Shown piece by piece: positions 22,993 through 38,992 of a DNA stretch of 64,000 nt (within the stretch, counting starts at the first letter, position 1; each line of letters begins with the position of its first letter). Origin of the DNA: an uncultured Candidatus Saccharibacteria bacterium (GTDB lineage: Bacteria; Patescibacteriota; Minisyncoccia; Phycocordibacterales; PALSA-1337); contig CAYIYK010000003.1 of assembly GCA_964367745.1 (NCBI GenBank), positions 10,248 through 74,247 on the forward strand, in the 5' to 3' direction. Both the position numbers and the translations under genes were made by a program. Below the pieces are notes generated by a model. That model searched no databases. It was not told the origin of the DNA and was given only the letters and a program-made list of their open reading frames with translations.

Positions 22993-23940
22993 CTATTGAA
23001 ATTTCTTTAATTTATTGGCTATAAATATATCAGTATCTCTTCTAGATTCATAAGTCATACCTCCTGTATGTGGAGCGATGATTACATTTGAATATTCTTT
23101 TGCAAACTTCACTAATGGATGATTCTTGCAACTATTTTTTGTAAATAGAATCTCACCATCTAGAACGTCAGCTGTATAACCGGCAATCTTTTTTTGCTTT
23201 ATCATAGTCATCAAATCACCTTCATGAACTATTTTGCCTCTTGAAGTATTTATAAGATACGCAGTTTTCTTCATAAGACTCATAGTCTTTTTATTGAAAA
23301 GGAATTCTGTTTCTGGATTCAAATGTACGTGTATAGAAATAAAATCACTTTGTTTTATAAGCTCTTCGAAACTAACTTTTTTCCAATTTAGATTTGATGA
23401 TTCAACTTTTGGATCAGTGAATAGAACTTTCATACCCAAAGCCTCTCCATATCTTGCCATCCATTTTCCAAGTCTACCAAGTCCAACAACTCCCAATGTC
23501 TGACCATTCAGTGAATGCCCTTTGAACTTTTCTCTATTCCATTCCCCCTTTAGAACTGATTGAGTTGAACTAGGAATATGTCTTGAAGAAGATATGAGTA
23601 ATCCCAAAGCTAGTTCAGCAGTGCCAGTAATAGTATTTAGGAAATCATCTTCACCCTTTAGACTTAGAACTTTTATACCCTTTTCCTCAGCGTATTTTAA
23701 ATCGATATGATCCAAACCAGTTGTTGCGGTAACAAGGAACTTTAGATTTTTAGCTTTTGATAGGACTTCACTATTAAAGTTCAATCCCAAACCACAAACT
23801 ACTACATCATATTTTTCTATCTTTTTTAATAGTTCTTGATTTGTAGGTATAACATAATCAACCTTACCTAGAATGTTTAGAATCTTTTTTGCTTCAGGGT
23901 CGAAATCTTTACCGATTGTATTTAGTATTTTGTAGGCCAT
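22993..23940 (-). CDS. D-isomer-specific 2-hydroxyacid dehydrogenase (NAD-binding; glycerate/phosphoglycerate dehydrogenase-like)
   Basis: 315 aa with the NAD-binding motif GVVGLGRLGKWMARYGEALGMKV and the catalytic R/E/H arrangement (HTGGMT). Confidence 0.8.
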   Translation of the reverse strand: MAYKILNTIGKDFDPEAKKILNILGKVDYVIPTNQELLKKIEKYDVVVCGLGLNFNSEVLSKAKNLKFLVTATTGLDHIDLKYAEEKGIKVLSLKGEDDFLNTITGTAELALGLLISSSRHIPSSTQSVLKGEWNREKFKGHSLNGQTLGVVGLGRLGKWMARYGEALGMKVLFTDPKVESSNLNWKKVSFEELIKQSDFISIHVHLNPETEFLFNKKTMSLMKKTAYLINTSRGKIVHEGDLMTMIKQKKIAGYTADVLDGEILFTKNSCKNHPLVKFAKEYSNVIIAPHTGGMTYESRRDTDIFIANKLKKFQ

Positions 23941-23978
23941 TAAGTAATTATCTATAAAATGAAGGAAAAAGCAAATGG

Positions 23979-24422
23979 TTAAACCTTCGGCACCTTTATT
24001 ATAACCAACCTAGCTTTCGTAGAAGTCTTATGTTGATGTGGCTCTCCAGCAGGAATCCATAACCAATCTCCAGGTTTCATCACAACTTCTGTTCCACCCT
24101 TTATTTCTTTTGCTTTCCATTCCCTATCATCTATACTCCCATCAGCATTCTTTTTTACCCAAGGGTCTACCATTTCTCCTCCATAGATAAAGATAACTTC
24201 TCCTTCAAGACAAAACCATAGATCAGCTTCATGCTTGTGTATCTCTGCTTCATTTGAAATATTTATATCCTCCAATATATTCATAGGAACTTTATTCAAA
24301 GCAGAAAAAGCTTTTAGAGGTTCCAAAAGTTTTTTTGTTGGCGTGTCGGCACTAGGACTTGATAGAGTACTATCGATTAAATCTTTACTGATAAAAGCAC
24401 AATTTGATTTATTATTTTCCAT
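23979..24422 (-). CDS. Cupin-domain protein
   Basis: 147 aa. The cupin motifs in EADLWFCLEGEVIFIYGG...PGDWLWIPAGEPHQHK include His/Glu metal ligands. Confidence 0.5.
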   Translation of the reverse strand: MENNKSNCAFISKDLIDSTLSSPSADTPTKKLLEPLKAFSALNKVPMNILEDINISNEAEIHKHEADLWFCLEGEVIFIYGGEMVDPWVKKNADGSIDDREWKAKEIKGGTEVVMKPGDWLWIPAGEPHQHKTSTKARLVIIKVPKV

Positions 24423-24431
24423 TTAATTTAA

Positions 24432-26312
24432 TTAAAATTTAAATCCTTTTTTCTTTAATTCTTTTAACATGTACTCTGTGATAATCCAATCAAGTGGATA
24501 GTCTATATCTATAGATCTCTCTTTTGGTACTATATACCCTGCAATCTTATCTCCATATAACCTCTCTTCTTTCATAATCAAATCTCTTCTCATACAATAT
24601 ATTGCTGCACTTCTCTTGTATGCTACAGGTAGATCTTGTCTTCTTGTACCTTCTACTTCAGGAACAGAATATGCACTGATGAAGTCACCTTCTAATTTTT
24701 TAATCTTAATTGGATTTACATTACTTGGTACTTCAACTATTGATACTGCACTATCTGCTTTTGTATCTATAAGTTTTTGAATTGTTCCATCGATATCGTC
24801 TATAGTTCTAAAAGGTGAAGTTGGCTGAAGAATAACTACATAGTCGATAGTGATATTATTTTTCTTTTCATAAAAATCTATTGCATGTTGCATTACAGGA
24901 AGATGTGGAGTTGAATCTAGAGCCAATTCTTTTGGTCTCATAAAAGGTACATCTGCACCATACTTCTTACACACATCGGCAATCTCTTTGTCATCTGTTG
25001 AAACGATAAGATGATTTATCAATTTACTTTTCTTTGCAGCATCGATTGTATATGCAATAAGAGGTTTATTGCCAAGTTTCTTTATATTCTTACCCGGAAT
25101 ACCTTTTGACCCTCCGCGAGCTGTAATAACGCCAAGGACGTTTGGAGTTCTGTATTCCCTATCTACATGTTCTTCTGTAAGCGGTTCAAATTTCTTTATA
25201 TCTTTTATTATTTTTTTATCCAAAATATCATGGAAAAGATTCGAGAAAATTCCATTTAGATGAAGTCTTGGTCTCATAGCGTAAACCATATCACTCGTGA
25301 TTATTGTTCCAGCTTTAATATCTCTTGAAGCAACGAGTGTTTTGTTGAAATAAGGTCTAAACTTATTTTGTGCACCTTCCAATTCTTTTTCCTTTTGACC
25401 GTAGAAAATATTTGTATCTATTTTCTTATATTCATTTTTCTTAATACCAGAGACCAATTGTTTCATTTCTTCTGGAGTTACTGAAGCTTTATGGTCTGAA
25501 CCCCAAAGGCCTCGGTCTAGAGAAAAGTGTTTCTCTATAACCTGCGCACCCATTTTTACTGCAGCTAAAGGAATAGTATTATCTCCAACTGAATGATCAG
25601 AAAAACCGATGATCGCTTGAGGGTATTTTTCTCTAAAATATTCTATAGTAGAAAGGTTAAAAGCTTCTGGAGGACATGGATATTCACTAACGCAATATAG
25701 AATAATAATTGGTGACCCACGCTTTGTTATATAGTCAACAACGTCATCCAACTCTTTGTGACTAACCATTCCTGTTGAAATGATTATTGGTTTTTGTGTC
25801 TTTGTAATAAAGTCCAAAAGAACATGATCCTGAACATCACCAGAACCTACTTTCCAGAAAGGTACATCTAGATTCTCAAGCTTAACCGCTGCCATTCTAG
25901 ACATCGGAGTTGAGAAGAATATAATTCCCTTTTTTTCTGAATATCTTTTTATCTCTTTGAAGAATTCTATAGGTGCTTCTTCAGTATTTCTTTTAACCCA
26001 AGAATATCTATCACTGCCTTTGAAGTGCGGAGAAACTACATTTATATTTGCTTGTTCATCTTCAACTTCATGAGTTTGAAATTTCACAGCATGTGCACCA
26101 GCTTTTACTGCTTCGTCGATAAGCTTTTTTGCATTTTTAATATAGACTTTTAGAGGTTGAGACTCTTGTGTTTGTATAAAATTCTTACCGATTTCAGCAA
26201 TAACAAAAACTTTATCTTTTGATATGATCTTAGAGATAGCGTGAGGTTTCACTATTTTTGAATTTTTGTTCTTACTGGCTTTAGAAGATTTAACAGACTT
26301 TTTTGTTTTCAT
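24432..26312 (-). CDS. neuBA: Bifunctional nonulosonic (sialic) acid synthase NeuB-like + SAF domain + CMP-nonulosonate cytidylyltransferase NeuA-like
   Basis: The N-terminal roughly 330 aa match NeuB/PseI/LegI: VIAEIGKNF, KFQTH, FFSTPMS, KVGSGD, IIGFSDH, EKHFS, and the SAF segment KTLVASRDIKAGTIITSDM. The C-terminal roughly 230 aa match CTP_transf_3/NeuA (LGVITARGGSKGIPGKNIKKLGNKPLIAYTIDAA). A Lys-rich N-terminal tail is present. Confidence 0.8.
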   Translation of the reverse strand: MKTKKSVKSSKASKNKNSKIVKPHAISKIISKDKVFVIAEIGKNFIQTQESQPLKVYIKNAKKLIDEAVKAGAHAVKFQTHEVEDEQANINVVSPHFKGSDRYSWVKRNTEEAPIEFFKEIKRYSEKKGIIFFSTPMSRMAAVKLENLDVPFWKVGSGDVQDHVLLDFITKTQKPIIISTGMVSHKELDDVVDYITKRGSPIIILYCVSEYPCPPEAFNLSTIEYFREKYPQAIIGFSDHSVGDNTIPLAAVKMGAQVIEKHFSLDRGLWGSDHKASVTPEEMKQLVSGIKKNEYKKIDTNIFYGQKEKELEGAQNKFRPYFNKTLVASRDIKAGTIITSDMVYAMRPRLHLNGIFSNLFHDILDKKIIKDIKKFEPLTEEHVDREYRTPNVLGVITARGGSKGIPGKNIKKLGNKPLIAYTIDAAKKSKLINHLIVSTDDKEIADVCKKYGADVPFMRPKELALDSTPHLPVMQHAIDFYEKKNNITIDYVVILQPTSPFRTIDDIDGTIQKLIDTKADSAVSIVEVPSNVNPIKIKKLEGDFISAYSVPEVEGTRRQDLPVAYKRSAAIYCMRRDLIMKEERLYGDKIAGYIVPKERSIDIDYPLDWIITEYMLKELKKKGFKF

Positions 26313-26348
26313 ATGTTATATCCTATGCTATTTAAAAATTTTTGCAAC

Positions 26349-26380
26349 AAAAAAAATCCACCCAGTAAAACCAGGTGGAA
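26349..26380 (-). terminator. Rho-independent terminator for the GC-rich methyltransferase gene (minus strand)
   Basis: On the minus strand the stem ttccacc...ggtggaa (26357-26380) is followed by T8 (26349-26356). It lies between the methyltransferase stop (26409) and the neuBA start (26312). Confidence 0.55.
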
Positions 26381-26408
26381 ATTGTGTTGAGTGTTCAGTA
26401 CTCGAAGA

Positions 26409-27347
26409 TCAAAGCCTGCGAGCGGTGACCACAACCGACGGGTGGTATGCGGTAAAGTTGAGGAGATTCTGGTCTGCCTCAAAAACGCTACGGATTCCAA
26501 TACCAACAATCTTGAGCTTGTCCTCAATCGGAAGCTTGTCGAGCGGTTCCCAACGGCACCAAGTGGCCCAGGCATTGCGAATGAAATCGACGATTCGACT
26601 CCCAACAACAGGAACGAGGGTTTCATTCACACGGAAGATCTCGAAACCATTTTGCTCGAGAGCAGACTTGAGATCAACAAGCGAGAATGCCTTTGCTTTG
26701 GGTGCCCAGAGATTTTCGCGAGTGAAATCAGGATACTTTGACCGAACATAATTGTAAGCTGCATCGTGCGCAATCCTATAAAGCGGATGCGAGAGTTCGG
26801 TTGTGATCTGATCCGGCCCCGGCTCAGACTTTGACCGGAAATCGTGCAAATTGCACTTCCAATCCGAATAATTGGACGGACCGAAGTCAAAACTGAGAGT
26901 TCCACGAACCTTGAGGCAAGAACTGATTGCTTTCAAGGAAGCATCGAGGGTATCCCGCAAAAGATGAAACATCTGACAACAGACAGCGGCGTCATGAAGA
27001 CCTACAACATGCCGATCCAGAAATTCCGCTTTCATTGTGTAAGCATTCACCCTCGGATTACCCATCAAATTGAGGAGAAGGAAATGCATCATGCTTTCAT
27101 TCGGCTCAACAGCCGAAACGAGCGCCTTCGTCCTCTTGAGAATAACTGCTGTACTGACACCAGTGCCGGCGCCAATCTCCAACACTGAATTGATTCCATT
27201 TTTGTTGGCTTGAATCGCCTCACTAACAACGAATTCAGCCATTTCAGTGTAGTATTTGTCACGACCATTGAAGGCCGAGTATGCTGCGCCGACATTCCCT
27301 TCGAAGAGTTTCGAACCGAGGATTGCACTAACATTACTTGTACTCAT
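26409..27347 (-). CDS. Class I SAM-dependent methyltransferase encoded by a GC-rich (~48% GC) island, probably horizontally acquired
   Basis: 312 aa containing motif I LEIGAGTGVSTAVIL. GC content is sharply elevated relative to flanks of about 30% GC. The high GC produces many spurious overlapping ORFs on both strands in the six-frame track. Confidence 0.7.
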   Translation of the reverse strand: MSTSNVSAILGSKLFEGNVGAAYSAFNGRDKYYTEMAEFVVSEAIQANKNGINSVLEIGAGTGVSTAVILKRTKALVSAVEPNESMMHFLLLNLMGNPRVNAYTMKAEFLDRHVVGLHDAAVCCQMFHLLRDTLDASLKAISSCLKVRGTLSFDFGPSNYSDWKCNLHDFRSKSEPGPDQITTELSHPLYRIAHDAAYNYVRSKYPDFTRENLWAPKAKAFSLVDLKSALEQNGFEIFRVNETLVPVVGSRIVDFIRNAWATWCRWEPLDKLPIEDKLKIVGIGIRSVFEADQNLLNFTAYHPSVVVTARRL

Positions 27348-27523: not shown

Positions 27524-28477
27524 ATGACAGCAAAAAATGTTGGAAATTGGCAAAAATGGGCCTTCTTGGAAGGAATAACAAGGACCTTATCAAGGACTCT
27601 ACAAAAAGTTGTTGGTTCCGTATCTAACAACTGGGAGAATACCCTACTAGCTGCCGGCATAATCGGTTTTGTTCAAGTTCTGTCAGCTGTAATCATTACA
27701 AGAAAGACGAAAGAAAAACTTCTGTGTGATCCAGCAGGAATCATCGGCTGTTTGATTTTTGGTCTTATAGCTCTAGTATGTACTGTATTAGGCTTCGCAA
27801 CTTTCCTTTATGGAGGAGATATTACTGTTAGTACTTTTATCATTGCCCTGTCCATCATTCCAAGTATGATAATCGACATCGTCTTCTTCAACTACAAATC
27901 TAGTCGTAGAGAATGGATTGGGATTTTTGTGGCGGTTATAGCTGGTTGGGCAGTTCTAGACTTCCCAAACTTAGCTAGCATGCTTAAGTTGCCTATGTGG
28001 GTAGGCCTTTCATTCATCACCATGATCCTTGTGGCAATAAATCAAGGAATCACACAATCAATCAAAGATATTTCCCCGATGTTCAAAAACTTCTGGGGTG
28101 GTATGGTGGCACTAATACTGTCACCAGTTATCATGATCGTGATTGGCAAAGGTGGATTCTTACTCAGTTTCCCAGATAATAAAGTACTATGGTTTACCTC
28201 AGCTATGATTGGGATCATAGTGATAGCCATATGGTCTTTCAACCTTCTGAGCTACAAGGACGGTGCGAGTATCGCATTAAAAAAACTTGTAGTAAGTAGT
28301 ATTTACTTTATCAGTACCACGTTTCTTGGAAGCATCGTATTTAACGAAGCAATGACTGCTGGGAAAATTATTGCAATCCCTCTTTTTATTATTTCATACT
28401 TCCTTATGAGTAAGGAAGCCTACAATTTCGTACTAGCGAAGCGGATACCGAAGTGGATAAAGTGGATATTGAAGTGA
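27524..28477 (+). CDS. Hypothetical polytopic membrane protein (about 9-10 TM; possibly DMT/EamA-like transporter)
   Basis: 317 aa and highly hydrophobic throughout. No catalytic motifs were recognised. Confidence 0.45.
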   Translation: MTAKNVGNWQKWAFLEGITRTLSRTLQKVVGSVSNNWENTLLAAGIIGFVQVLSAVIITRKTKEKLLCDPAGIIGCLIFGLIALVCTVLGFATFLYGGDITVSTFIIALSIIPSMIIDIVFFNYKSSRREWIGIFVAVIAGWAVLDFPNLASMLKLPMWVGLSFITMILVAINQGITQSIKDISPMFKNFWGGMVALILSPVIMIVIGKGGFLLSFPDNKVLWFTSAMIGIIVIAIWSFNLLSYKDGASIALKKLVVSSIYFISTTFLGSIVFNEAMTAGKIIAIPLFIISYFLMSKEAYNFVLAKRIPKWIKWILK

Positions 28478-28507
28478 TGTCTAAGTAAATACAGTAATCT
28501 CTCAAAG

Positions 28508-28540
28508 CCCTCACGTAAAAAGCGTGGGGGTCTTTTTATT
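28508..28540. terminator. Hairpin terminator (ccctcacg-taaaaag-cgtggggg + TCTTTTTATT) between convergent genes
   Basis: An 8 bp stem with one G-U pair is followed by a T-tract. It overlaps the stop of the minus-strand NeuC gene and lies 30 bp after the stop of the plus-strand membrane protein. Confidence 0.5.
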
Positions 28541-29693
28541 CAACAAAAGTCTTTTGAGTATAAAGAGGTACAGTAGCTATAACCTCTGCAATCTTTTTAC
28601 TTGTACCTTCTGCAAAATATAGACTTGATGATTCGTATCTGCCTTTTTTAACTTGTTTCTCTATTGCTTTCTTTATAGCTTTAATATCATGGTCTACAGT
28701 TACTACATTTTCTGCACTCAATCTTTTGAATTGTCTATTACCAATATTCACCACAGGCAAACCCATAAAAGAAGATTCCTTTATTCCAGCTGATGAATTC
28801 CCTATCAAACATAGACTGTTATTCAATAGCCAAATAAAATCCTTTGGACCCATATATCGCATGAAGCGTATTTTATGTCCTTTAACTTCATCTTTAAAAA
28901 TTCGAAGCTCATGTGATATATCTTCTGCACCGGCATCAGCATTTGGCCAAAACCAAAGTGTTGGAATCTTTAGACTATGTACAGCATCAAGGATTTTCTT
29001 TGTATTTTCATGTACATGCTTCACATCCATAATATCAGGATGATACATAACTATTAGATATCCTTTCTTTAGATCAAAAAGGGCCCCACTTCCTGTTTTC
29101 TTTATATCGAATTTATGTTTATTTTTTGCTAATTTTTGTACAACTTCTATTTCTGGACTACCAAAATTGAAAACGTGAGATTCTCTTTCTCCAAGTCTCA
29201 ATACTCTTTTTCTTGCTGGTTCATTTGTTGTAAAGTGAATATGAGAAAGTTTTGTGATAGCGTGTCTTACACTTTCATCTATTGATCCAGATACATCACC
29301 ACCTTCTATGTGTGCGATAGGTATAGATAAATATGCAGCTGCAATTGTAGCTGATAGAACTTCAAATCTATCACCTCTTACCACAACGACATCAGGTTTA
29401 ATCTGATTAAAAAGTGTAGTGAATTCTATTATTCCTAGTCCTGTTGTTTTTGCTTTTACGATTGTATCATTCCCTTCTAGATTGAAATGTAGTTCGTATA
29501 GCTTGTTATATCCGTCTTCCGTCAAAAGTTTTCTTATATCAGCAAGTTTTGAAGTATAACGAGACAATAAAGCTGTACCTCCAACTATTATATGTAGGTC
29601 AATATCCTTTCTTTTCTTTAGTTCTTCTAGAATAAGAAAGTTACGACTATAGTGTATGAAACTTGTAATAACAAAGCAGACTTTTCTCTTCAT
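28536..29693 (-). CDS. neuC: UDP-N-acetylglucosamine 2-epimerase (hydrolysing), NeuC-like
   Basis: 385 aa of the Epimerase_2 family. Motifs VVVRGDRFEVL and AHIEGGDVSGSIDESVRHAITKLSHIHF match. Confidence 0.8.
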   Translation of the reverse strand: MKRKVCFVITSFIHYSRNFLILEELKKRKDIDLHIIVGGTALLSRYTSKLADIRKLLTEDGYNKLYELHFNLEGNDTIVKAKTTGLGIIEFTTLFNQIKPDVVVVRGDRFEVLSATIAAAYLSIPIAHIEGGDVSGSIDESVRHAITKLSHIHFTTNEPARKRVLRLGERESHVFNFGSPEIEVVQKLAKNKHKFDIKKTGSGALFDLKKGYLIVMYHPDIMDVKHVHENTKKILDAVHSLKIPTLWFWPNADAGAEDISHELRIFKDEVKGHKIRFMRYMGPKDFIWLLNNSLCLIGNSSAGIKESSFMGLPVVNIGNRQFKRLSAENVVTVDHDIKAIKKAIEKQVKKGRYESSSLYFAEGTSKKIAEVIATVPLYTQKTFVE

Positions 29694-29696
29694 AGT

Positions 29697-30680: not shown

Positions 30681-30681
30681 T

Positions 30682-32040: not shown

Positions 32041-33365
32041 TTATTTATTGATTCTAGTATTGCATTAAAAAGTCTTTCAGTATTTTTGCCATCCAAAAAT
32101 CCAGTTTCCATCTCTGCTAGTTTCTTTCTTTTATCTTTATCCAGACTAGGATTTTTAACGTATTCTTCTACATAGTCTTTAAATTGACGCATAGATTCAG
32201 CCAGCTTCACACCTCCACTCTCTATTACTGGAATAAAATTGTTATAATCATAATATCTTCTTATACTATCAAAATATTCCCTTTTTTCATGTCCGTCAAA
32301 ACCAAAAAGGATTATTGGTTTATCCATATATGCAGAATCCAAAACTAAAGTTGATGGTGAGCTGATAACCAATTCTGACCAGAACAATGTATGAGCAAGA
32401 TGTATATCATCATCTTTATCGATCTCTGTAATTTTTATATTATCAAATTTAGGTTTTGCTCTGTCATACATAACCTTAATATTTGGAAACTTCGGACTAT
32501 TCTCCAATTCTCTAACATAATCTCCAGGTGGAAGTCTGACTAGAAGTTGATAATCATTTGGTAAAGTCTTATCCAAAATATCTACAATATCTCTGTCTAC
32601 AGTATTTTTTCTCAAATATCGATCACCTAGAGGTATAAATAAAGCCAGCTTTTTATTCTGATCACCACCTATTTTTTCTATAAATTCTTTTCTATTTGTA
32701 AATACATTCTTTTTATAATCATCATAGTGTGGAATTCCGACAATAGATATTATTGATTCATTTATTCCTTGAAGATCTTTTGCTTCATCTTTAATGATAT
32801 TGTTCCAAACAAAAAGTCTATTCGGAATCGTTCGAATGATACCTTTTGAAGTAAGATTGTCCCAAGAACGAACCATACCGATAGTCTTTATACCTGAGGA
32901 ATTACCTTCATTTAAAATCGCTATATCGATTTCGCTTTGAATATCGGTAGCGAATACGCAATCAGGTTTATACTGCTCAAATAATTTATCAAATTTTTTA
33001 TTTTTATAACTTACTCTTTCCAAGAATCTTACGAATTTATGCCCGATTTTATTTGATAATAAATAAGTTAAATACATTCCACTCCCTTTCATCTCTGTCT
33101 TCCTTTTTATATAAAGAGTTTTTGTATTTAATGCTGTTAGCGAAAGATACTTTAATAAATTTTCTCTTTTAGCATTTTTAAATTCTATTCCTTCAACAAC
33201 TACCCCATCTCTTTCAAAACTTTCTTTAAAAAAACTCTCTTTATTTTTTGGAGCAATTATTACAACTTTTATTTCATTCTTAACAAAGAGATCCAAAATT
33301 CCAGATGAAAGAATATTTCTTGATATTAGAGGATGGCAACTAGTTATAAAAATTGTCTTTTTCAT
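32037..33365 (-). CDS. Surface-carbohydrate biosynthesis transferase-like protein (paralog 2 of 3)
   Basis: 442 aa and a paralog of 30682..32040. It has the same MKKTIFIT start and the same RSWDNLTSKGI block. The two genes are adjacent and overlap by 4 bp. Confidence 0.45.
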   Translation of the reverse strand: MKKTIFITSCHPLISRNILSSGILDLFVKNEIKVVIIAPKNKESFFKESFERDGVVVEGIEFKNAKRENLLKYLSLTALNTKTLYIKRKTEMKGSGMYLTYLLSNKIGHKFVRFLERVSYKNKKFDKLFEQYKPDCVFATDIQSEIDIAILNEGNSSGIKTIGMVRSWDNLTSKGIIRTIPNRLFVWNNIIKDEAKDLQGINESIISIVGIPHYDDYKKNVFTNRKEFIEKIGGDQNKKLALFIPLGDRYLRKNTVDRDIVDILDKTLPNDYQLLVRLPPGDYVRELENSPKFPNIKVMYDRAKPKFDNIKITEIDKDDDIHLAHTLFWSELVISSPSTLVLDSAYMDKPIILFGFDGHEKREYFDSIRRYYDYNNFIPVIESGGVKLAESMRQFKDYVEEYVKNPSLDKDKRKKLAEMETGFLDGKNTERLFNAILESINK

Positions 33366-34312
33366 TATCTTTTAAGGAATTGCTGTAGACGTACTGTAAG
33401 TAAATATCTTAAATAAATATAATATTTGTTTATTGATAATAAAGTAAAAATATAATTACCCTTACCTATTGTTAAATCCTTGAAGGGGGTTTTATTCAAT
33501 CTTTTAGCCACAATGCGAATATGTACTTTTGGAATTCCCTGCATGACCTTCTTTTTTGTATATTCATTAGCTTCAAAGAAAAGGATTTCGAATCCAGCTG
33601 ATACAATGAAATCTCTCAAAACCTCAGGTGTATACATATAGACATGGTCGATCTTTACACTATTTTCATACTTTCCTGCTTTTTGTAATTGCTGTCGAAA
33701 ATTCATAACTTCAACTACAAGAAGTCCATTATCAAAAAGAGACTCGTGAGCCCATTTGAAAAAATATCTAGGATCCAAATAGTGATTTAAAGCTTGAGTA
33801 CTGACTATAACTGCGAATTTTTCTTTTTTATTATGATCTTCGATTAGAGCATGATAAGTCTTTATTCCTTGAGAATTCGCATAATCTGATTCAATCTTTG
33901 ATGGCTCAAGACCAATTACTTCTCTATTCAAAAATCTTTTCATTCCTTCCAAAACTCCTCCGACACCAGAACCGACTTCCATTATTGAGCCTTTTACTTT
34001 TAGATATGGTGATATAAGCTCACCCAAGAATTTGCCGTGTCCGATGGTTGATTCGAACAATTTCTTACAATCAAAATCTGAACCTGCTTCGCCATTGTTT
34101 ATAGTTTTTTGTCTGTATTCTTCTTCATAATAGAATTTGTAACCAGACTTTGTCATTCTAGGATTTATATAAATAAGCCCGCATTTTTTACAAATAACAG
34201 AATTCAAAGCAAGACCATCAGTGCCTTTTTTTGACAGGATTTTATAATTGTTACTTAAACAGAAACTGCAAGCAATATTCTCCTTTTCAATTGTATTGTA
34301 TGGGAAAGACAT
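33365..34312 (-). CDS. Zn-ribbon SAM-dependent methyltransferase (paralog 2 of 3); ORF extends to 34432 but the homology-supported start is Met at 34312
   Basis: From MSFPYNTIEKENIACSFCLSNNYKIL...CKKCGLIYINPRMT it aligns colinearly with the N-terminus of paralog 1 (MEGFDYNKKNLEYIACNLCGGNDFKII...CKKCSLVFINPRMT). SAM motif I is MEVGSGVGG. Confidence 0.65.
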   Translation of the reverse strand: MSFPYNTIEKENIACSFCLSNNYKILSKKGTDGLALNSVICKKCGLIYINPRMTKSGYKFYYEEEYRQKTINNGEAGSDFDCKKLFESTIGHGKFLGELISPYLKVKGSIMEVGSGVGGVLEGMKRFLNREVIGLEPSKIESDYANSQGIKTYHALIEDHNKKEKFAVIVSTQALNHYLDPRYFFKWAHESLFDNGLLVVEVMNFRQQLQKAGKYENSVKIDHVYMYTPEVLRDFIVSAGFEILFFEANEYTKKKVMQGIPKVHIRIVAKRLNKTPFKDLTIGKGNYIFTLLSINKYYIYLRYLLTVRLQQFLKR

Positions 34313-34383
34313 TTTATGATAAACAAGTATATCACAACAAAATATTGCTTCAATTAAGATTAAATTCTGATATACTGTCTCAA

Positions 34384-35520
34384 ATGGAAATAAAAATCGA
34401 TAAGGTCGCAAATCTAAGTGGCTGGAAATCATATACAGTAGACAATACTAATGATTTTATAACTATAAATGATTGCTTGTGTTGCAAAGGAAAACTAAAA
34501 GTTACAATTCGAAATAAAAATCAAACAGACGATACAAAGATTGATATTGGAACTTGTGTAAATTGTGGTTTTACAACCTATATTAATAAACCAAGTCACA
34601 AATGGATTATCGATTTCTACAATTCAACTTGGAATAAAGAAGAGGGTGAAGAGAATAATTTTGTAAATAAAGATCTACAATCTAGCAAACTAACAATAGC
34701 CCTAGAAAAAATAAATTTCCCAAAGAATGGTTCAATATGTGAAATCGGCACAGGAAGAGGCGGTAACTTTGCTGCGCTTATAAATAATGGTTATAACAAT
34801 CTTATTGGTGTAGAGAATTCAATACACAGAGCTGATACAGTGAGTAAAGCTCTAAATGATGTTCCTATATACACAGGAGGTTTTGAAGAAGAAAAAGTAC
34901 AAAATGCTCTAGCGAAACATGGAAGTTTCGATTTGATATACACTGCTCATGTAATGGAACATATTTATAATCCTGAAGAGACTATTGAACTATGTTCAAA
35001 ACTTCAGAATGAAAATGGTCATTTGATAGTCGCTGTGCCGAACTTCGTAGGTGAACCTAGTATAGGTATTTCTTCTTTCCTTCCCCATTTACATTCTTTT
35101 ACAAAAGAATCGATGATAAGACTTTTGAATAATAAAGGGTATCAAGTTATAGATGATAGTTACACTACAGAGTTTGAATTGTTTCTTATTGCTCAAAAGA
35201 AAAGTAATATTAATAAAAAACTAGATAATAAGACTGATTATATAAAACCTGCTCAAGACAAATTTATTAAAGAATTAAAATTGAATGAAATTCCCCTAAA
35301 TCAGTCTGTATTCTATTTTTTCTCTAAGAAAAATTATTCAGTATCTGGATATAAAATACTAAATAAAATATCAATAATAAAAACAATTCAAGCTATGTTT
35401 TTCAAATTCATTCAAAGAAAAAAAGGTTATAGATCTTTCGTATTTACTTTGATGAATAAAGATAAAAATCAACCAATTGTATTGAATTGGAAGAAATCTA
35501 TTATTCTTTTCTATAAATAA
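34384..35520 (+). CDS. Zn-ribbon SAM-dependent methyltransferase (paralog 3 of 3, divergent orientation, longer C-terminus); six-frame ORF begins at 34231 but likely start is 34384
   Basis: The Cys4 ribbon is CLCC...CVNCGFTTYINKPS and SAM motif I is CEIGTGRGG. The 34231 start would overlap the neighbouring divergent methyltransferase by about 200 bp. Confidence 0.6.
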   Translation: MEIKIDKVANLSGWKSYTVDNTNDFITINDCLCCKGKLKVTIRNKNQTDDTKIDIGTCVNCGFTTYINKPSHKWIIDFYNSTWNKEEGEENNFVNKDLQSSKLTIALEKINFPKNGSICEIGTGRGGNFAALINNGYNNLIGVENSIHRADTVSKALNDVPIYTGGFEEEKVQNALAKHGSFDLIYTAHVMEHIYNPEETIELCSKLQNENGHLIVAVPNFVGEPSIGISSFLPHLHSFTKESMIRLLNNKGYQVIDDSYTTEFELFLIAQKKSNINKKLDNKTDYIKPAQDKFIKELKLNEIPLNQSVFYFFSKKNYSVSGYKILNKISIIKTIQAMFFKFIQRKKGYRSFVFTLMNKDKNQPIVLNWKKSIILFYK

Positions 35521-36471
35521 TTAGAAATTATAGAATTTCGGCTCCTTCTTTATCTTATTTGAAACTGCGATTTTAGCTTCATTAGATAGTCCATTTGTAT
35601 CTAGTGATTTCGGATATTTATATAGTATAGGCCAAACAGATGCTGGAGAAGTGTATACACTTGTATACATGAATCTATTACTTGTCTTTGCATGACCGCC
35701 TCTATGCAAACCGCTTGTATCGCAGAATATTATTGTTCCAGCTTTACCTGTACACACAATTTTGTCTTCATTAGGAATTAAGGAATCCTGGCTTGCACTA
35801 CCTCGTGGTGGCTGTTGTGGTGATATATGTCTCCATTTACCGAAGATATGAGACTTTTTAACATAAATAAAAGGGCCAGCATTGTCATCAACATCATTTA
35901 GATAAAGGAACACTTTTACAAGTTGTTGATCTTCAGGATCTCTGTGCCACTCTTGTGATGCGTAACTTCTCATTCCTTCAGGCATAGGTACGGTCACTTG
36001 GAATCTCCAATCAAAAAACTTCATATACATTTTCATATATGCATTCACTGTTCCGAGAATTTGATTACTCAGACTCATTTTGGTGAGAGGATGTTTTAGA
36101 TCCAATATTCTCTCTCCATTCCAAAGATCGATCAAAAAGAAATTCTTACTTTTCAACTTGTCACCATCCAATAGATTACCTCTAGAGTCGTATCTTTCTT
36201 TAACGTCTTTATCATTCCATCGATTCTGTGCAATCTTCTCCAATTCAGCATATACGTGCTTTGGAAAAAGTTTATCGATATGACTTATTGCAATACCGTC
36301 TCTATTTAGATCTTCGACGATTTTCTTCTGTTCATCTGACAATTTATTTTCACTCTTTTTATAAAGTCTAATACTTGAGATATTTAGTAGAGTCCAGACA
36401 AATCGACTTGCTCTGATGCGATGATAAAAACGTGCGATTATACCTATAACACTTTTTATTATTTTCTTCAT
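35521..36471 (-). CDS. Phytanoyl-CoA dioxygenase (PhyH)-family Fe(II)/2-oxoglutarate-dependent oxygenase
   Basis: 316 aa. The HxD...H facial triad context fits: WHRD and GLHRGGHA. The protein size matches PhyH-like hydroxylases. Confidence 0.6.
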   Translation of the reverse strand: MKKIIKSVIGIIARFYHRIRASRFVWTLLNISSIRLYKKSENKLSDEQKKIVEDLNRDGIAISHIDKLFPKHVYAELEKIAQNRWNDKDVKERYDSRGNLLDGDKLKSKNFFLIDLWNGERILDLKHPLTKMSLSNQILGTVNAYMKMYMKFFDWRFQVTVPMPEGMRSYASQEWHRDPEDQQLVKVFLYLNDVDDNAGPFIYVKKSHIFGKWRHISPQQPPRGSASQDSLIPNEDKIVCTGKAGTIIFCDTSGLHRGGHAKTSNRFMYTSVYTSPASVWPILYKYPKSLDTNGLSNEAKIAVSNKIKKEPKFYNF

Positions 36472-36478
36472 AAATAAA

Positions 36479-37828
36479 TTAAATAATTTTTCCTAAAAAA
36501 TCGACATTTCTCTTATAAGACAAACCGTCTCTAAAGAAAATAAAATCATTGAATACTTTCTCTTGTTGCTTCTTTTTTACATCGTGATTTTTCAAACAAA
36601 TATTAACATGTTCAACGATATTATCGAAACTCTTTGAGAGAAAAACTGCATCAGCATCTACTATAGGTTTATAGTGACGGAAATTGTATGCTCTATGATA
36701 CTTTTCTGGATAATCTATATTTACAACTGGTTTTCCGAAGATAAAAGATTCAAGGGTCATTGTTGAAACGTAGTTTATAACTACATCAGAATATTTTAGA
36801 GTTAATTTTAGATTCAAAATATCATCTTCATGTATTTCAATTCTTGTACCCATTTCTTGTGAAAGTAACTTGCCTGGATATTCAACATGGAGATTTGGAA
36901 TTTTACTATCAATATATACTTTGAACTTATCAAACTCTTCTTTTGGATGCATTCGCACTAGAATATTGGGTTTACCATCGAATTTGCCTTGATCACGAGC
37001 TTTCAATAGTTCACCAAGAAGAATATCTTCATCAGGGTAATTCCCCTTTGTAACTGTAGTTATAAGTATTGTTTTTTCTTTTGGATTCAATCCTTTACTC
37101 AAAAGGAACGCTTCTCTAGACTGTTCACTTGGATTGTTTACAGAATAAGAGTCGAAACGCATTGTACCTGAGACAAATACATTATCTTCTGAATATCCAT
37201 ATTCTTTAACTGCGGTATTTTTTATTATTTTATTCCAAACGATTAGATAATCTGGTCTTCTAAAATGCATTCCTCCATTGTGAAGATTGTCCCAACTGAA
37301 GTTTACTGCAGCAGTCTTTATACCAAACTTCTTAGCATATATTATTGCTTCAGCATCAGGATGACTGAAGCCAGGAGTTGCTGTTAGAAACATAACTGGG
37401 TTGTATTCTTTAATCTTTTCTTCAAGAGCCTTTGATCTTGGTATAAAAATTTTCTCAAGTTTAGTAAATAAATCATTTGTCCAAAAAGATGCAGGGGCAA
37501 TGTAAGAAAAATACTTCAAAAATCTTCTTCTCCAATCCTTCATCCCCTTTTCTTTATTTCTTACAACCACTGGTTCAAAATCGTATTTACGGATTATTGA
37601 ATATCTAAAATATTTACCAAATAGATTCCAAAATCCTGGATTTTGTAATTTCCAAGGAACATAAGTCACATTTTCTGATTTAAAATATGGTTTATTATCT
37701 TCACAAAAAGCTTGTGGGGACATAAATACGACTACTTTGTATTTTGTTGATAAATACTTTATATAATCTGTACGCAAAAAATCTGATGAGTAAACAAAGT
37801 TCGAAATAAAAAGAAATATTGTTTTCAT
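36479..37828 (-). CDS. Surface-carbohydrate biosynthesis transferase-like protein (paralog 3 of 3); ORF extends to 37873, paralog-supported start MKTIF at 37828
   Basis: It shares the MKTIFLFIS start, the NFSWDNLHNGG block and the (I/V)W/FN motif with the other two paralogs. Confidence 0.45.
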   Translation of the reverse strand: MKTIFLFISNFVYSSDFLRTDYIKYLSTKYKVVVFMSPQAFCEDNKPYFKSENVTYVPWKLQNPGFWNLFGKYFRYSIIRKYDFEPVVVRNKEKGMKDWRRRFLKYFSYIAPASFWTNDLFTKLEKIFIPRSKALEEKIKEYNPVMFLTATPGFSHPDAEAIIYAKKFGIKTAAVNFSWDNLHNGGMHFRRPDYLIVWNKIIKNTAVKEYGYSEDNVFVSGTMRFDSYSVNNPSEQSREAFLLSKGLNPKEKTILITTVTKGNYPDEDILLGELLKARDQGKFDGKPNILVRMHPKEEFDKFKVYIDSKIPNLHVEYPGKLLSQEMGTRIEIHEDDILNLKLTLKYSDVVINYVSTMTLESFIFGKPVVNIDYPEKYHRAYNFRHYKPIVDADAVFLSKSFDNIVEHVNICLKNHDVKKKQQEKVFNDFIFFRDGLSYKRNVDFLGKII

Positions 37829-37873
37829 AGAAAGGTATTGTAGCATATATGTTATAATCCTTATTATTACCAC

Positions 37874-38992
37874 ATGAAAAAGCCTATTCTGCTACTCTGG
37901 ATAATTTCATCATGGATTCTCTATCCTTTTTTTAGTCTATCTTCAAAAATTAAGAGTAAGAAACTAGGTAAAAAGAAAAGGATACTTGTATTACCTCAGC
38001 TTTCTAGAATTGGGGACATCGTCTGTTCTACAGGCGTATTTTATAACATAAAAAAATCATATCCTGATAGTTATGTATCTGTACTAGTATCAAAGAGAGC
38101 ATTTGGAATTATAAAAAACAATAAAAGAATCGATAATTTTATTATTTATGAAGACTATTCTTTTTTTGGTTTAATAAATAAAATTAAATCAGAGAATTTT
38201 AACTATTCAATAAACCTCACAGCAACATCAATAAATACATGTTTAACACTTTGGAGTTGTATAGATCACAGAATAAAGACTGTGGTAGAAAATCCCCCGA
38301 TTACTGAGAGACTAACTGATTGTATGTCTAATCATCGATTGTTATACAAGAATCATACGTATTTACCGCTTCATCATATAAAGTTGTTGAATTTTATTGG
38401 AATAAATAATCCTGAAGATAAAAAAGAAATCTGGCTAAGTGATACAGCAGAAATAAAAGCGAATGATTTTGTTAAAAATCTTGGAGAAAATAAGAAAATA
38501 ATTGGAATAAGTATAACCGCAGGAAATAAAATAAAAGAACTCGGTGATGAGAGATTTGAAAAATTAATAAATAAACTATTAGAAAATAAAGAAAATATTG
38601 TTTGTTGTATAGGATCAAAAAACGATTCAGAAAGAATAGATAAAATAATATCAAGCGTAAATAATCCTCGTTTCATTAAAGCAACAGATTTTAACTTGGA
38701 AGAGTTACCATCTCTTATGAAAAGATTCTCACTTTATATAGCAGTTGATACAGGCCCTATTTATATCGCACATGCTCTGGGAGTACCTCTAATAGACATA
38801 ATAGGTCCAGTAGATCCGGATGAACAACCACCAAAAGACAGTAAGAGTATACGAATTCTTCCTAGAGGAGATATTAAGCCTAGTTCATTTGTATTTAAGA
38901 GACGTGGAACTCAAGATGAAATCATCTCAGCAATACAAAATACTGATATAAACGATATCTATAAAGCAGCAAGTATACTATTGAGTAAGTAG
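37874..38992 (+). CDS. Glycosyltransferase family 9 (heptosyltransferase-like)
   Basis: 372 aa. The N-terminal ILVLPQLSRIGDIVCSTGVFYNIKKSYPDSYVSVL and the C-terminal VDTGPIYIAHALGVPLIDIIGP match GT9 signature regions. Confidence 0.6.
   Translation: MKKPILLLWIISSWILYPFFSLSSKIKSKKLGKKKRILVLPQLSRIGDIVCSTGVFYNIKKSYPDSYVSVLVSKRAFGIIKNNKRIDNFIIYEDYSFFGLINKIKSENFNYSINLTATSINTCLTLWSCIDHRIKTVVENPPITERLTDCMSNHRLLYKNHTYLPLHHIKLLNFIGINNPEDKKEIWLSDTAEIKANDFVKNLGENKKIIGISITAGNKIKELGDERFEKLINKLLENKENIVCCIGSKNDSERIDKIISSVNNPRFIKATDFNLEELPSLMKRFSLYIAVDTGPIYIAHALGVPLIDIIGPVDPDEQPPKDSKSIRILPRGDIKPSSFVFKRRGTQDEIISAIQNTDINDIYKAASILLSK

Follow-up and report, generated by a model that had tools for sequence, protein, structure and literature searches.

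A probable sialic-acid-like nonulosonate locus, most likely for a cell-surface glycan, in an uncultured Candidatus Saccharibacteria genome

In bacteria, the Wzy_C domain is found in the O-oligosaccharyltransferases PglL and TfpO, and it occurs also in polymerases and in lipid-directed ligases. In the Pseudomonas and Acinetobacter systems, TfpO and TfpW are encoded directly downstream of pilA. TagF releases CMP from CDP-glycerol, and CMP is likewise the leaving group when a CMP-nonulosonate serves as donor. Sialic-acid genes have already been mentioned in passing for the CPR (PMC4736985).

Here we analysed a window of 64,000 nucleotides from an uncultured Candidatus Saccharibacteria bacterium (GCA_964367745.1, contig CAYIYK010000003.1, positions 10,248 to 74,247 of the forward strand), in which the stretch under study comprises positions 22993–38992. 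Genes were called from ORFs together with Pfam and NCBIfam profile searches. All members of the gene list in the original prediction were recovered at or near their expected positions, and the profiles identified NeuB, NeuA (as CTP_transf_3), NeuC and PhyH. As had been proposed, this is most likely a locus for nonulosonic-acid (NulO) biosynthesis and tailoring in a CPR-type genome. The sugar is most likely put on a cell-surface glycan. For comparison, we counted genes around homologs of the transferase tf1 in 41 GTDB-species loci whose 10-kb flanks were complete on both sides, and in a wider set of 77 related loci.

Nonulosonate synthesis genes and the identity of the sugar

The minimal route NeuC-NeuB-NeuA is encoded locally, in agreement with the original prediction:

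22993–23940, minus strand: PGDH-like D-2-hydroxyacid dehydrogenase (2-Hacid_dh_C, 2e-49)
23979–24422, minus strand: small cupin protein (Cupin_2, 7.5e-10) with weak likeness to the YhcH/NanQ Neu5Ac anomerase
24432–26312, minus strand: fusion of NeuB (Pfam, 4e-66), SAF and CTP_transf_3 (NeuA, 1e-27) domains, NulO synthase/CMP-NulO synthetase
26409–27347, minus strand: class I methyltransferase, compositionally foreign accessory insert
27524–28477, plus strand: EamA/DMT-family transporter between neuC and neuB (EamA, 5.7e-7; at least seven hydrophobic segments)
28536–29693, minus strand: NeuC-type hydrolysing UDP-HexNAc 2-epimerase (TIGR03568, 342.7 bits, cut-off 235.9)

The three activities would make a CMP-nonulosonate, probably of the Neu5Ac type. 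The best PDB match of the NeuB domain is NeuB of N. meningitidis (160 bits), and residues aligned with His215, His236, Asp247, Tyr186 and Arg314 of that enzyme are kept. The fusion itself was found only in the window locus and in one related locus (L005). Its NCBIfam scores (NeuB_NnaB 252 bits, PseI 214, PseF 172) all lie under the cut-offs; thus, with both domains below every equivalog cut-off, the sugar might be other than Neu5Ac.

One such possibility, which we consider rather improbable, is a legionaminic-acid-type 5,7-diamino NulO or another non-Neu5Ac NulO, with NeuC acting on UDP/GDP-diNAcBac whose biosynthetic genes would lie elsewhere in the genome. Among solved structures, NeuC is matched best by the GDP/UDP-diNAcBac hydrolysing 2-epimerase from A. 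baumannii (5xvs/5zlr, 190.7 bits); however, human GNE, a UDP-GlcNAc enzyme, scores nearly the same (185.5 bits). Because NeuC is equally near to both and neither the NeuB nor the NeuA domain reaches an equivalog cut-off, the earlier preference for Neu5Ac over Leg is not established. The NeuB domain is almost as near to SpsE of B. subtilis (149 bits), which works in a Leg pathway (PMC7439481), and PseF is the best NCBIfam match of the NeuA domain. Furthermore, known TagB-like NulO transferases use Pse/Leg derivatives, and the tightly linked dehydrogenase points to a pathway other than plain NeuABC. Against a diamino sugar, no 4,6-dehydratase (Polysacc_synt_2 type), DegT aminotransferase or acetyltransferase is encoded in the window. 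The absence of PseB/PseC/PseH- or LegB/LegC-type genes, noted before, held among window ORFs of at least 100 aa outside other genes, where no Pse- or Leg-type dehydratase, aminotransferase or acetyltransferase was found. Such families were also missing from the recurrent gene clusters of the 77 related loci, in which the Pfam-scanned clusters gave only generic Epimerase/GDP_Man_Dehyd SDR proteins and the other clusters were judged by sequence alone. The suggestion that the sugar is acylated or glyceroylated was speculative; the window contains no acyltransferase or ligase.

The dehydrogenase and the cupin were both found as predicted. The dehydrogenase, whose nearest solved structure is a short phosphoglycerate dehydrogenase (1wwk, 158 bits), adjoins NeuA/NeuB in 34 of its 38 occurrences and accompanies the window-type NeuB in 26/31 loci versus 4/20 loci with paralogs only (Fisher p = 8e-6). 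It is a conserved member of the NulO cassette and presumably acts in the sugar pathway. The cupin is present in eight related loci; it has marginal scores for DUF386/YhcH (4.7e-4) and for the NCBIfam N-acetylneuraminate anomerase (4.7e-4, far under the cut-off), and only generic cupin matches in the PDB.

The methyltransferase insert is indeed foreign in composition (48.3% GC versus a gene mean of 33.1%, sd 4.5) and carries its own terminator-like hairpin at 26379–26357. Homologs occur in only two of the 77 related loci, and a PDB search gave no sequence match. The EamA transporter gene, which like the GT9 gene at 37874–38992 lies within the stretch and is missing from the original prediction, keeps its position in L005–L010; a terminator-like site lies nearby (28507–28531).

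Transferases and tailoring enzymes

Upstream of neuC, three transferase genes lie among putative tailoring genes:

29697–30680, minus strand: mt1, Zn-ribbon SAM methyltransferase, partner of tf1 (Methyltransf_23, 2e-13)
30682–32040, minus strand: tf1, TagB/F-like GT-B transferase, above the Pfam Glyphos_transf threshold
32037–33365, minus strand: tf2, paralogous TagB/F-like transferase (Glyphos_transf 1.7e-8; BFO_1060 47.8 bits; 30% identical to tf1)
33365–34312, minus strand: mt2, Zn-ribbon methyltransferase (Methyltransf_23, 2e-14; the ORF reaches 34432, likely start Met41 at 34312)
34384–35520, plus strand: mt3, Zn-ribbon methyltransferase (Methyltransf_23, 4.5e-14; the ORF begins at 34231, likely start 34384)
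35521–36471, minus strand: PhyH-type Fe(II)/2-oxoglutarate dioxygenase, a variable tailoring gene (Pfam PhyH 23.2 bits, borderline at a cut-off of 22)
36479–37828, minus strand: tf3, TagB/F-like transferase (the ORF reaches 37873; likely start at the MKTIF motif at 37828)

The original prediction described three paralogs of about 450 aa as uncharacterised transferase-like proteins. Three such proteins exist, with 25–30% mutual identity, but they are recognisable as TagB/TagF-like GT-B enzymes and are distant kin of the pseudaminic/legionaminic-acid transferases of Tannerella forsythia. This kinship, together with NeuA within 10 kb in 35/41 related loci, suggests that tf1–tf3 are probably CMP-NulO-dependent glycosyltransferases. 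The 'HP' motif that is typical of bacterial sialyltransferases and TagF is present at the aligned position in tf3, whereas tf1 has QP and tf2 has PP.

Alternatively, the transferases could be true TagF-type polyol-phosphate transferases or polymerases of a teichoic-acid-like or capsule-like polymer, in which case the Wzy_C/TPR protein described below would not be a protein O-oligosaccharyltransferase but would polymerise the chain as Wzy does or ligate it to a glycolipid in the manner of TacL. Both tf1 and tf2 pass the Glyphos_transf threshold, whereas tf3 stays under it (17.8 bits), as it does under the cut-offs of BFO_1060 (82.9 bits) and TIGR04396 (44 bits). TarL and TarB are weak matches of the tf proteins, TagF and TarL are their top structural matches, and there are proteins of about 900 aa in which two tf domains stand in tandem, an arrangement reminiscent of capsule polymerases. 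The breadth of the Wzy_C family and the Gram-positive-like envelope of these bacteria would also suit a polymer. However, the window contains no gene for CDP-glycerol or CDP-ribitol synthesis (TagD, TarI or TarJ types) and no LCP-family ligase, Wzz or ABC exporter, and a CMP-NulO synthetase is encoded within 10 kb in 35/41 loci. We thus regard a polyol-phosphate polymer as very unlikely.

All three methyltransferases carry the N-terminal CxxC...CxxC motif of the predicted Cys4 zinc ribbon, but their family is Methyltransf_23 and not Methyltransf_13/14. The motif is conserved in 45/52 homologs versus 4/48 control methyltransferases. Identity is 40% between mt1 and mt2 (alignment from residue 43) and 24% between mt2 and mt3. 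The dioxygenase assignment was confirmed by the invariant HxD...H...R (H176, D178, H256, R266) and by an AF2 model (pLDDT 94.5) whose fold matches are the Fe/2OG oxygenases ColD, SnoN/SnoK, EctD and AviO1. The phyH gene is present in eight related loci, and mt3 goes together with phyH in 7 of its own 11 occurrences. No membrane segments are predicted in the tf, mt and PhyH proteins, which is consistent with cytoplasmic assembly followed by Wzx/Wzy_C export.

Export, ligation and the pilus operon

Genes for export and further glycan assembly flank the cassette, and a pilus operon lies at the end of the window:

20711–22957, minus strand: polytopic Wzy_C (O-antigen ligase/O-oligosaccharyltransferase/polymerase) protein with C-terminal TPR (Pfam Wzy_C 60.9 bits, cut-off 31.7; TPR_19)
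37874–38992, plus strand: GT9 (heptosyltransferase-family) glycosyltransferase (Glyco_transf_9, 1.2e-17; weak matches to heptosyltransferases I–III)
38978–40366, minus strand: Wzx-type flippase (Polysacc_synt, 2.5e-7)
40390–44603: membrane-protein/GT module with two GT-C-like membrane proteins (40390–41814; PMT_2, 41818–43476), GT2 (43476–44240) and GtrA (44172–44603)
44600–53944: further glycan genes (TylF and Methyltransf_11 methyltransferases, GT2, five GT4, GFO/Idh/MocA oxidoreductase, FAD oxidoreductase)
57496–63996, minus strand: type IV pilus operon (pilin, PilC, PilT, response regulator, PilB, a 121-aa protein, PilO, PilN-like), running off the window end

The Wzy_C/TPR protein has about 10 hydrophobic segments followed by a soluble TPR tail, and beyond the TPR part it gave no sequence match to solved structures. 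Of 21 occurrences of its gene in relatives, 16 adjoin the NulO cassette, so that the genomic tie to the NulO locus is upheld; we consider it a candidate ligase for the finished glycan. The genes at 40390–44603, which are colinear in relatives, look like a polyprenol-phosphate-sugar modification module. The wzx gene is colinear in L005–L013 and L035, and heptose-nucleotide pathway genes lie near GT9 in relatives.

The original prediction assumed dedicated pilin glycosylation, in which the type IV pilin would be the intended target of the NulO glycan and the Wzy_C/TPR protein would be the pilin O-oligosaccharyltransferase, as the domain shared with PglL and TfpO would allow. A Wzx/Wzy_C route would indeed suit pilin glycosylation, which must presumably happen outside the membrane. 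The two gene sets are neighbours in the window, but not directly contiguous as had been stated: the operon starts 18.5 kb beyond the stretch under study, with about 14 glycan genes, a VirD4-like ATPase and a membrane protein in between. The order of pilus operon, VirD4-like gene, GT4 island and NulO locus is kept in 4/6 relatives checked, where one 648-kb contig carries it uninterrupted, whereas mur genes instead of the pilus operon flank the island in the other two. The block at 44600–53944 comes next after the VirD4-like gene in all six, and PilM follows further on in relatives, past the point equivalent to 63996. Unlike the genes for TfpO and TfpW, the Wzy_C/TPR gene is separated from that of the pilin by about 35 kb, and the slot directly downstream of the pilin gene is taken by a different protein, a polytopic membrane protein of 522 aa (55876–57444). 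No pilus genes occur within 10 kb of tf1 in the 41 related loci. Furthermore, these genomes are small and the window is a sizeable share of one, which makes the closeness of operon and island weak evidence. With synteny limited to those four relatives, the pilin was thus not established as the target and a dedicated pilin system is unlikely. The connection of the NulO locus to pili is only circumstantial, and the pilin is only one candidate acceptor among several.

A conserved cassette and its proposed function

Within 10 kb of the tf1 homolog, the 41 loci encode NeuA (35), NeuB (34), NeuC (29), the dehydrogenase (20), Wzy_C/TPR (14) and Wzx (14). The nearest relatives keep the gene order: pmt2-wzx-gt9-tf3-(phyH-mt3)-mt2-tf2-tf1-mt1-neuC-eamA-neuB-neuA-cupin-2HADH-WzyC/TPR is repeated in L005–L013 and L035 and also on the 648-kb contig.

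From protein families and genomic context, we propose the following route. NeuC would hydrolyse and 2-epimerise a UDP-HexNAc, in the simplest case UDP-GlcNAc to ManNAc; the NeuB domain would condense PEP with this product, and the fused NeuA domain would convert the NulO to CMP-NulO. The soluble tf1–tf3 would then use CMP-NulO to add NulO to a lipid-linked oligosaccharide at the cytoplasmic face; to the assembly of this oligosaccharide, GT9, GT2 and GT4 enzymes encoded in the island would also contribute. Each transferase would be partnered by a Zn-ribbon methyltransferase, one pair additionally by the PhyH-type dioxygenase, and these enzymes may methylate the sugar or glycan and also hydroxylate or epimerise it. 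Wzx would flip the glycan, and the Wzy_C/TPR protein would pass it to a final acceptor, perhaps a protein (one of the surface or S-layer, or the pilin) or else an anchor in lipid or wall.

Restriction of the 'HP' motif to tf3, the lack of an initiating phosphoglycosyltransferase gene in the window and the six of 41 loci without NeuA nearby count against this explanation. It is favoured by the Pfam and NCBIfam identities, including NeuC above its equivalog cut-off and the aligned NeuB catalytic residues, by guilt by association in the 41 loci with their recurring gene order, and by the missing CDP-glycerol/CDP-ribitol synthesis genes. Thus, the locus is not peculiar to its source genome but is a conserved cassette found across Patescibacteria, and as far as sequence comparison can tell, it is likely to be a variant of a conserved patescibacterial surface glycan locus built around a sialic-acid-like NulO.

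Gene content of the locus and the surrounding glycan island

Every gene named in the original prediction was borne out by an ORF listing and by Pfam and NCBIfam profile searches. The list below also includes an EamA transporter that was absent from that prediction.

Genes of the locus and its surroundings (position, strand where given, description)
20711–22957 (−): membrane protein with Wzy_C and TPR domains, 748 aa (Pfam match)
22993–23940 (−): D-2-hydroxyacid dehydrogenase (2HADH), nearest to short phosphoglycerate dehydrogenases (PGDH)
23979–24422 (−): cupin (Pfam match)
24432–26312 (−): NeuB-SAF-CTP_transf_3 fusion (Pfam match)
26409–27347 (−): methyltransferase, 48.3% GC against a 33% GC background, with its own terminator-like hairpin
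27524–28477 (+): EamA transporter (Pfam match)
28536–29693 (−): NeuC (TIGR03568, 342.7 bits against a cut-off of 235.9)
29697–30680, 33365–34312, 34384–35520: three methyltransferases with an N-terminal CxxC...CxxC (mt1–mt3)
30682–32040, 32037–33365, 36479–37828: three paralogs of about 450 aa (tf1–tf3), 25–30% mutual identity
35521–36471 (−): PhyH-type dioxygenase (Pfam match)
37874–38992 (+): GT9 glycosyltransferase (Pfam match)
53949–55823 (−): VirD4/TraG-like ATPase
55876–57444 (−): polytopic membrane protein of 522 aa, no family match

A larger glycan island, extending from 20.7 to 53.9 kb, has the range 22993–38992 at its core. Past 38992, we found a Wzx flippase, two GT-C-like membrane proteins, a GT2 glycosyltransferase and GtrA, then TylF-type and other methyltransferases; the island further holds a second GT2, five GT4 and two oxidoreductases. 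The stretch 40390–44603 (the GT-C-like membrane proteins, one of them PMT_2, with GT2 and GtrA) is colinear in relatives and looks like a polyprenol-phosphate-sugar module that modifies the glycan outside the membrane. A search for an initiating phosphoglycosyltransferase in those window ORFs that lie outside other genes and are at least 100 aa long gave no match.

An Rfam scan of the window returned zero RNA families, and a promoter scan found no excess of sites (83 compared to 93.8 expected from shuffles). Two terminator-like sites were the only useful output of this regulatory-site scan. Just upstream of the island, at 16072–18610, lie an enolase gene and a histidine-phosphatase (phosphoglycerate-mutase-like) gene, which are probably housekeeping genes. 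Such enzymes supply PEP, the co-substrate of NeuB.

A cassette that recurs across Patescibacteria

Homologs of tf1 at 50–92% identity are numerous, and all those with a source name come from Patescibacteria. By scanning one genome per GTDB species, we detected 77 tf1 loci (L-numbered below), nearly all of them in Patescibacteria MAGs (Paceibacterota, Parcubacteria, Giovannoni-, Sungii-, Harrison-, Zambryski-, Taylor-, Niyogi-, Yanofsky- and Kaiserbacteria). ORFs were called in these loci and searched with the window proteins; the counts below refer to the 41 loci with full 10-kb flanks around tf1.

Genes within 10 kb of tf1 (loci out of 41)
NeuA: 35/41
NeuB: 34/41
NeuC: 29/41
NeuA, NeuB and NeuC together: 25/41
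2-hydroxyacid dehydrogenase: 20/41
Wzy_C/TPR: 14/41
Wzx: 14/41
GT9: 12/41
at least two tf copies: 32/41
at least three tf copies: 20/41
pilus genes: 0/41

The closest relatives, namely the loci L005–L013 and L035 and a 648-kb JGI contig, have a common gene order: pmt2, (GT-C), wzx, gt9, tf3, [phyH-mt3], mt2, tf2, tf1, mt1, neuC, eamA, neuB, neuA, cupin, 2HADH, Wzy_C/TPR. Within this order, the pair of PhyH and mt3 is a variable insert that is found in L009, L010 and L013 and is missing from L005–L007 and L035. Homologs of the GC-rich methyltransferase occur at the same position in only two other loci (L006 and L019), and the NeuB-NeuA fusion is found only in the window and L005 among the related loci. 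Thus, the window holds one variant of a conserved cassette and not a unique invention. The GC-rich methyltransferase gene, which has a hairpin-plus-T-run at 26379–26357, is probably a recently acquired tailoring gene.

Relatives at a greater distance add further genes to the cassette. These include heptose-nucleotide genes (SIS isomerase, GHMP kinase, HAD phosphatase and nucleotidyltransferase), which lie near tf together with a transaldolase in L003, L026, L031, L057, L076 and others and which fit the GT9 heptosyltransferase-family gene of the window. Genes for a CBS-UDP-sugar dehydrogenase, a polysaccharide deacetylase, FkbH-like proteins and AMP-ligases are also added, and some relatives have a second NeuB/NeuA pair. 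Visual inspection placed AMP-dependent ligase-like genes near tf in 10 loci and FkbH-like genes in 7 (L043, L067 and others); a representative of the FkbH-like genes gave no Pfam match. Both gene types are absent from the window, and in the relatives they might supply hydroxyacyl substituents.

In the LPS inner core, the Kdo transferase WaaA is followed by the GT9 heptosyltransferase WaaC, which acts on the ulosonic acid. The cassette resembles this arrangement in that GT9 lies beside putative ulosonic-acid transferases and that relatives carry heptose-nucleotide genes; however, there are no lipid A or Kdo genes here and the likeness is an analogy only.

The predicted nonulosonic acid and its putative transferases

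To characterise the nonulosonic acid (NulO, a sialic-acid-like sugar), we compared the three pathway enzymes to family profiles and solved structures. NeuC exceeds the curated equivalog cut-off of its TIGR03568 profile, compared to just 69 bits with the non-hydrolysing WecB model. Its nearest solved relatives, the diNAcBac enzyme 5xvs (190.7 bits) and human GNE (185.5 bits), are about equally close. The NeuB part consists of a TIM barrel (PF03102, 223 bits) and a SAF/antifreeze-like domain (27 bits), both above their cut-offs; it remains under the equivalog cut-off of TIGR03569 NeuB_NnaB (252.4 against 399.65 bits) and under that of the PseI model (214.5 against 340.25 bits), and thus the product sugar is not assignable from the NeuB score. 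The NeuA domain matches PF02348 CTP_transf_3 (97.8 bits, cut-off 22.6) and NeuA proteins in the PDB (84–114 bits), and it scores 172 bits with PseF, below the cut-off of 205.7, compared to at most 48 bits with KdsB models. We aligned the NeuB domain with N. meningitidis NeuB (NmNeuB), for which we take His215, His236, Asp247, Tyr186 and Arg314 from the 1XUZ work to be the metal and substrate residues. All five are identical in the NeuB domain, and the position of Asn184 is occupied by Ser.

Neither a 4,6-dehydratase nor an aminotransferase or N-acetyltransferase of the PseB/C/H or LegB/C/H type was found in the 64-kb window (ORFs of at least 100 aa outside other genes). Among the recurrent gene clusters of the relatives that were scanned against Pfam, there is no DegT or PglF type, and the sole sugar dehydratase-like cluster is a generic Epimerase/GDP_Man_Dehyd SDR. 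The Neu5Ac-type route is the only complete NulO route that is encoded locally. Together with the lack of DegT and PglF types in the scanned clusters and the conserved NmNeuB residues, this makes a Neu5Ac-type scaffold, as originally predicted, the most likely one as judged from sequence; the final product is probably modified. The nearest solved homologs of NeuC and NeuB were also considered for distinguishing Neu from Leg, but the scores did not separate the two. Profile searches of the window gave no match to the sialyltransferase families GT38, GT42, GT52 and GT80 or to NeuD and NeuO.

The same three enzyme families make up the classical NeuC-NeuB-NeuA pathway of E. coli K1, N. meningitidis and C. 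jejuni. In contrast to this pathway, NeuB and NeuA are fused in the window, both domains score below all NCBIfam equivalog cut-offs, and the PGDH-like dehydrogenase is a conserved fourth member. This dehydrogenase is present in 26/31 loci with the window-type NeuB orthologue class, compared to 4/20 loci that have only NeuB paralogs (Fisher p = 8e-6), and adjoins NeuA/NeuB in 34 of its 38 occurrences, mostly being placed between neuA and neuB in related loci. We know of no NulO pathway that uses a PGDH-like 2-hydroxyacid dehydrogenase, and a literature search returned no paper linking such dehydrogenases with NulO pathways.

Several neighbouring genes were also inspected. The cupin (23979–24422) was tried as a Neu5Ac anomerase and set aside as a weak lead, with E about 5e-4 in two libraries and generic cupins as PDB matches. 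The EamA/DMT transporter (27524–28477, +) sits between neuC and neuB, and this position is kept in L005–L010. The CMP-sialic acid transporters of eukaryotes also belong to the DMT superfamily. L016, L017, L019 and L061 (the same locus as L002) each have NeuB and NeuA twice, and the second, shorter NeuB adjoins SDR, GFO/Idh/MocA and NTP_transf_2 genes. This doubling suggests a second ulosonic acid pathway.

The gene order couples tf1 with mt1, tf2 with mt2, and tf3 with mt3 and PhyH, which points to separate tailoring of every residue that is added, or of every donor variant. The N-terminal Zn-ribbon motif of the mt proteins has no Pfam model; it is present in 45/52 mt homologs of the related loci compared to 4/48 control methyltransferases and is thus a family trait. 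The catalytic domains had been predicted as Methyltransf_13/14; we found only generic matches (Methyltransf_23/11/12), and the domain is Methyltransf_23-like. For PhyH, the predicted family was confirmed: the Pfam score is only borderline (23.2 bits against 22), but it is backed by motif, model and fold. The facial triad and the 2OG arginine (H176-x-D178...H256...R266) are invariant in the alignment, the model (pLDDT 94.5) has a double-stranded beta-helix fold, and Foldseek retrieves Fe/2OG oxygenases (E about 1e-11), among them SnoN, SnoK and AviO1, which act on sugars.

The tf proteins form a large family (1,669 clusters at 50% identity, E ≤ 1e-30). Pfam Glyphos_transf (PF04464, threshold 22.1), the family of the teichoic acid enzymes TagB, TagF and TarL, is passed by tf1 (41.9 bits) and tf2 (34.2 bits) and failed by tf3 (17.8 bits). 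The tf1 model (55 homologs, pLDDT 93.9) shows a GT-B fold like that of TagF; this fold comparison was the only informative one for structural relatives, as sequence searches of tf1 and of the 55-sequence tf profile against solved structures gave nothing relevant. A YAPxGR-like motif in tf resembles what we take to be the TagF-family motif YAPT(F/W)R. The differences are that the tf profile retrieves neither TagF nor TarL from the PDB and that the tf genes are linked to NeuA and NeuB: no TagD-, TarI- or TarJ-type CDP-glycerol or CDP-ribitol genes were found in the window, and NeuA is near tf in most loci instead. The tf proteins have no predicted membrane segments. Based on this feature, the TagF-like structure, the CMP that a tf donor would release as TagF's does, and the linkage to NeuA and not to CDP-alditol genes, we conclude that tf1–tf3 are probable NulO transferases.

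A further likeness exists to the general protein O-glycosylation of Tannerella forsythia. All three tf proteins match NCBIfam NF046086 ("BFO_1060 family glycosyltransferase", E 1e-12 to 1e-23), with scores of 52.7, 47.8 and 82.9 bits for tf1, tf2 and tf3 that lie far under the curated cut-off of 200 and thus mark distant relatives and not family members. BFO_1060 is the ortholog of Tanf_01245 and TFUB4_00887, described by the authors as TagB-like GT-B enzymes, and knock-outs showed that they are needed for the O-glycan to receive its terminal derivative of pseudaminic or legionaminic acid (PMC5420450). As in the window, a NulO cluster lies beside TagB-like GT-B transferases in T. forsythia, and its glycan carries methyl and other non-sugar decorations (PMC5420450, PMC5378307). 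There, the transferases put CMP-activated NulO on a lipid-linked O-glycan, a role that is predicted for tf from its genomic association. Sialyltransferase-like HP and D/E-D/E-G motifs are a feature of the T. forsythia enzymes (PMC5420450); in the tf alignment, SWD and R..P are invariant instead, and HP is found in tf3 only (VRMHP), its histidine being replaced by Gln in tf1 (VRFQP) and by Pro in tf2 (VRLPP). Further differences are three paralogs here and one there, a local NeuC/NeuB/NeuA route and not the six-step Pse or Leg route, and a monoderm-like CPR host. Public data also contain proteins in which two tf-like domains stand in tandem over a length of about 900 aa (P0361, P0383, P0385, P0397 and P0405), an architecture that recalls, by analogy, multi-domain capsule polymerases.

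The candidate glycan ligase and a possible link to pili

The Wzy_C/TPR protein is a polytopic membrane protein with about 10 hydrophobic segments and matches Wzy_C (PF04932, 60.9 bits against 31.7), a domain that by itself does not tell ligases, polymerases and O-OTases apart. It adjoins the NulO cassette in 16 of its 21 occurrences in relatives and is a candidate glycan ligase. The window shares the combination of Wzx and a Wzy_C protein beside glycan genes with the systems of known Wzy_C O-OTases (PglL, the pilin enzymes TfpO/PilO, and WsaB/WsfB of Gram-positive S-layers); it differs in the C-terminal TPR domain, in the distance to the pilin gene and in that no Wzy_C protein of solved structure matches it in sequence. 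A ligase candidate is adjacent here, whereas the O-OTase of Bacteroidota, considered as another possible Wzy_C/TPR protein, is still undiscovered (PMC12871550).

The NulO locus had been predicted to be contiguous with a complete type IV pilus operon. The operon is present from 57496, but it begins 18.5 kb past the end of the range and runs off the window. Its order with the VirD4-like gene and the GT4 island is kept in 4/6 relatives (VirD4-like protein at 65–87% identity), and on the 648-kb contig this block continues straight into the NulO locus, as would be expected if the glycan were made specifically for type IV pilin. However, mur genes replace the pilus operon in 2/6 relatives, distant relatives have no pilus linkage, and conserved gene order says little about function when the genomes are small and related. 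Nor does the Wzy_C gene (20711–22957) directly follow the pilin gene (57496–57975), as is the hallmark of TfpO/PilO: it lies about 35 kb away, and the slot is filled by the polytopic membrane protein at 55876–57444 and is variable in relatives. We thus consider a pilin-specific glycan unlikely.

This slot is where TfpO- and TfpW-type pilin glycosylases sit in other bacteria. For the protein that occupies it in the window, neither Pfam nor NCBIfam returned a match, and at least 8 hydrophobic segments were counted; relatives have a second pilin, a PemK toxin or a PAP2 protein instead. The VirD4/TraG-like coupling ATPase (53949–55823) separates the pilus operon from the GT4 island, and GT4 genes follow it in 6/6 relatives. 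It has at least 8,000 homologs, with E ≤ 1e-20 for all the matches listed, and seems to belong to the core genes of Patescibacteria and not to a conjugative element.

In the mechanism that we propose, NeuC and the NeuB and NeuA domains would produce a CMP-nonulosonate, which the tf enzymes would add to a lipid-linked glycan at the cytoplasmic face. Wzx would flip the glycan, and the Wzy_C/TPR protein would ligate it. The most extended reading is that of an undescribed NulO glycosylation system, widespread in Patescibacteria, in which a new NulO variant needs the PGDH-like dehydrogenase; three TagF-derived transferases, each with a Zn-ribbon methyltransferase, would extend a lipid-linked glycan that contains heptose by a short, methylated chain of NulO residues, and the Wzy_C/TPR protein would transfer it en bloc to type IV pilin or other surface proteins that mediate attachment to host cells. 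As a whole, we regard this reading as very doubtful.

A literature search for NulO sugars in Patescibacteria, CPR or Parcubacteria returned a single one-line mention for Peribacteria, and no description of the locus itself turned up in the literature searched. Each of the components, NulO pathways, TagB-like NulO transferases and Wzy_C ligases, belongs to a known kind; the novelty lies in their combination and its breadth in Patescibacteria, with several TagF-like transferases each accompanied by a Zn-ribbon methyltransferase, and, as part of this combination, the conserved dehydrogenase step, the embedded DMT transporter and the TPR-bearing Wzy_C partner.

Patescibacteria (CPR) are believed to live in attachment to other microbes, and their surface chemistry is almost unstudied. 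Our analysis suggests that their genomes recurrently carry a sialic-acid-like sugar pathway and, with it, a large and dedicated TagF-like transferase family. It provides concrete candidates for NulO transferases, a class with few characterised members, brings to light a conserved dehydrogenase step that no NulO pathway known to us explains, and names the Wzy_C/TPR protein as a candidate ligase. Should pili or other adhesins carry the glycan, it would have a direct bearing on host recognition by these episymbionts.
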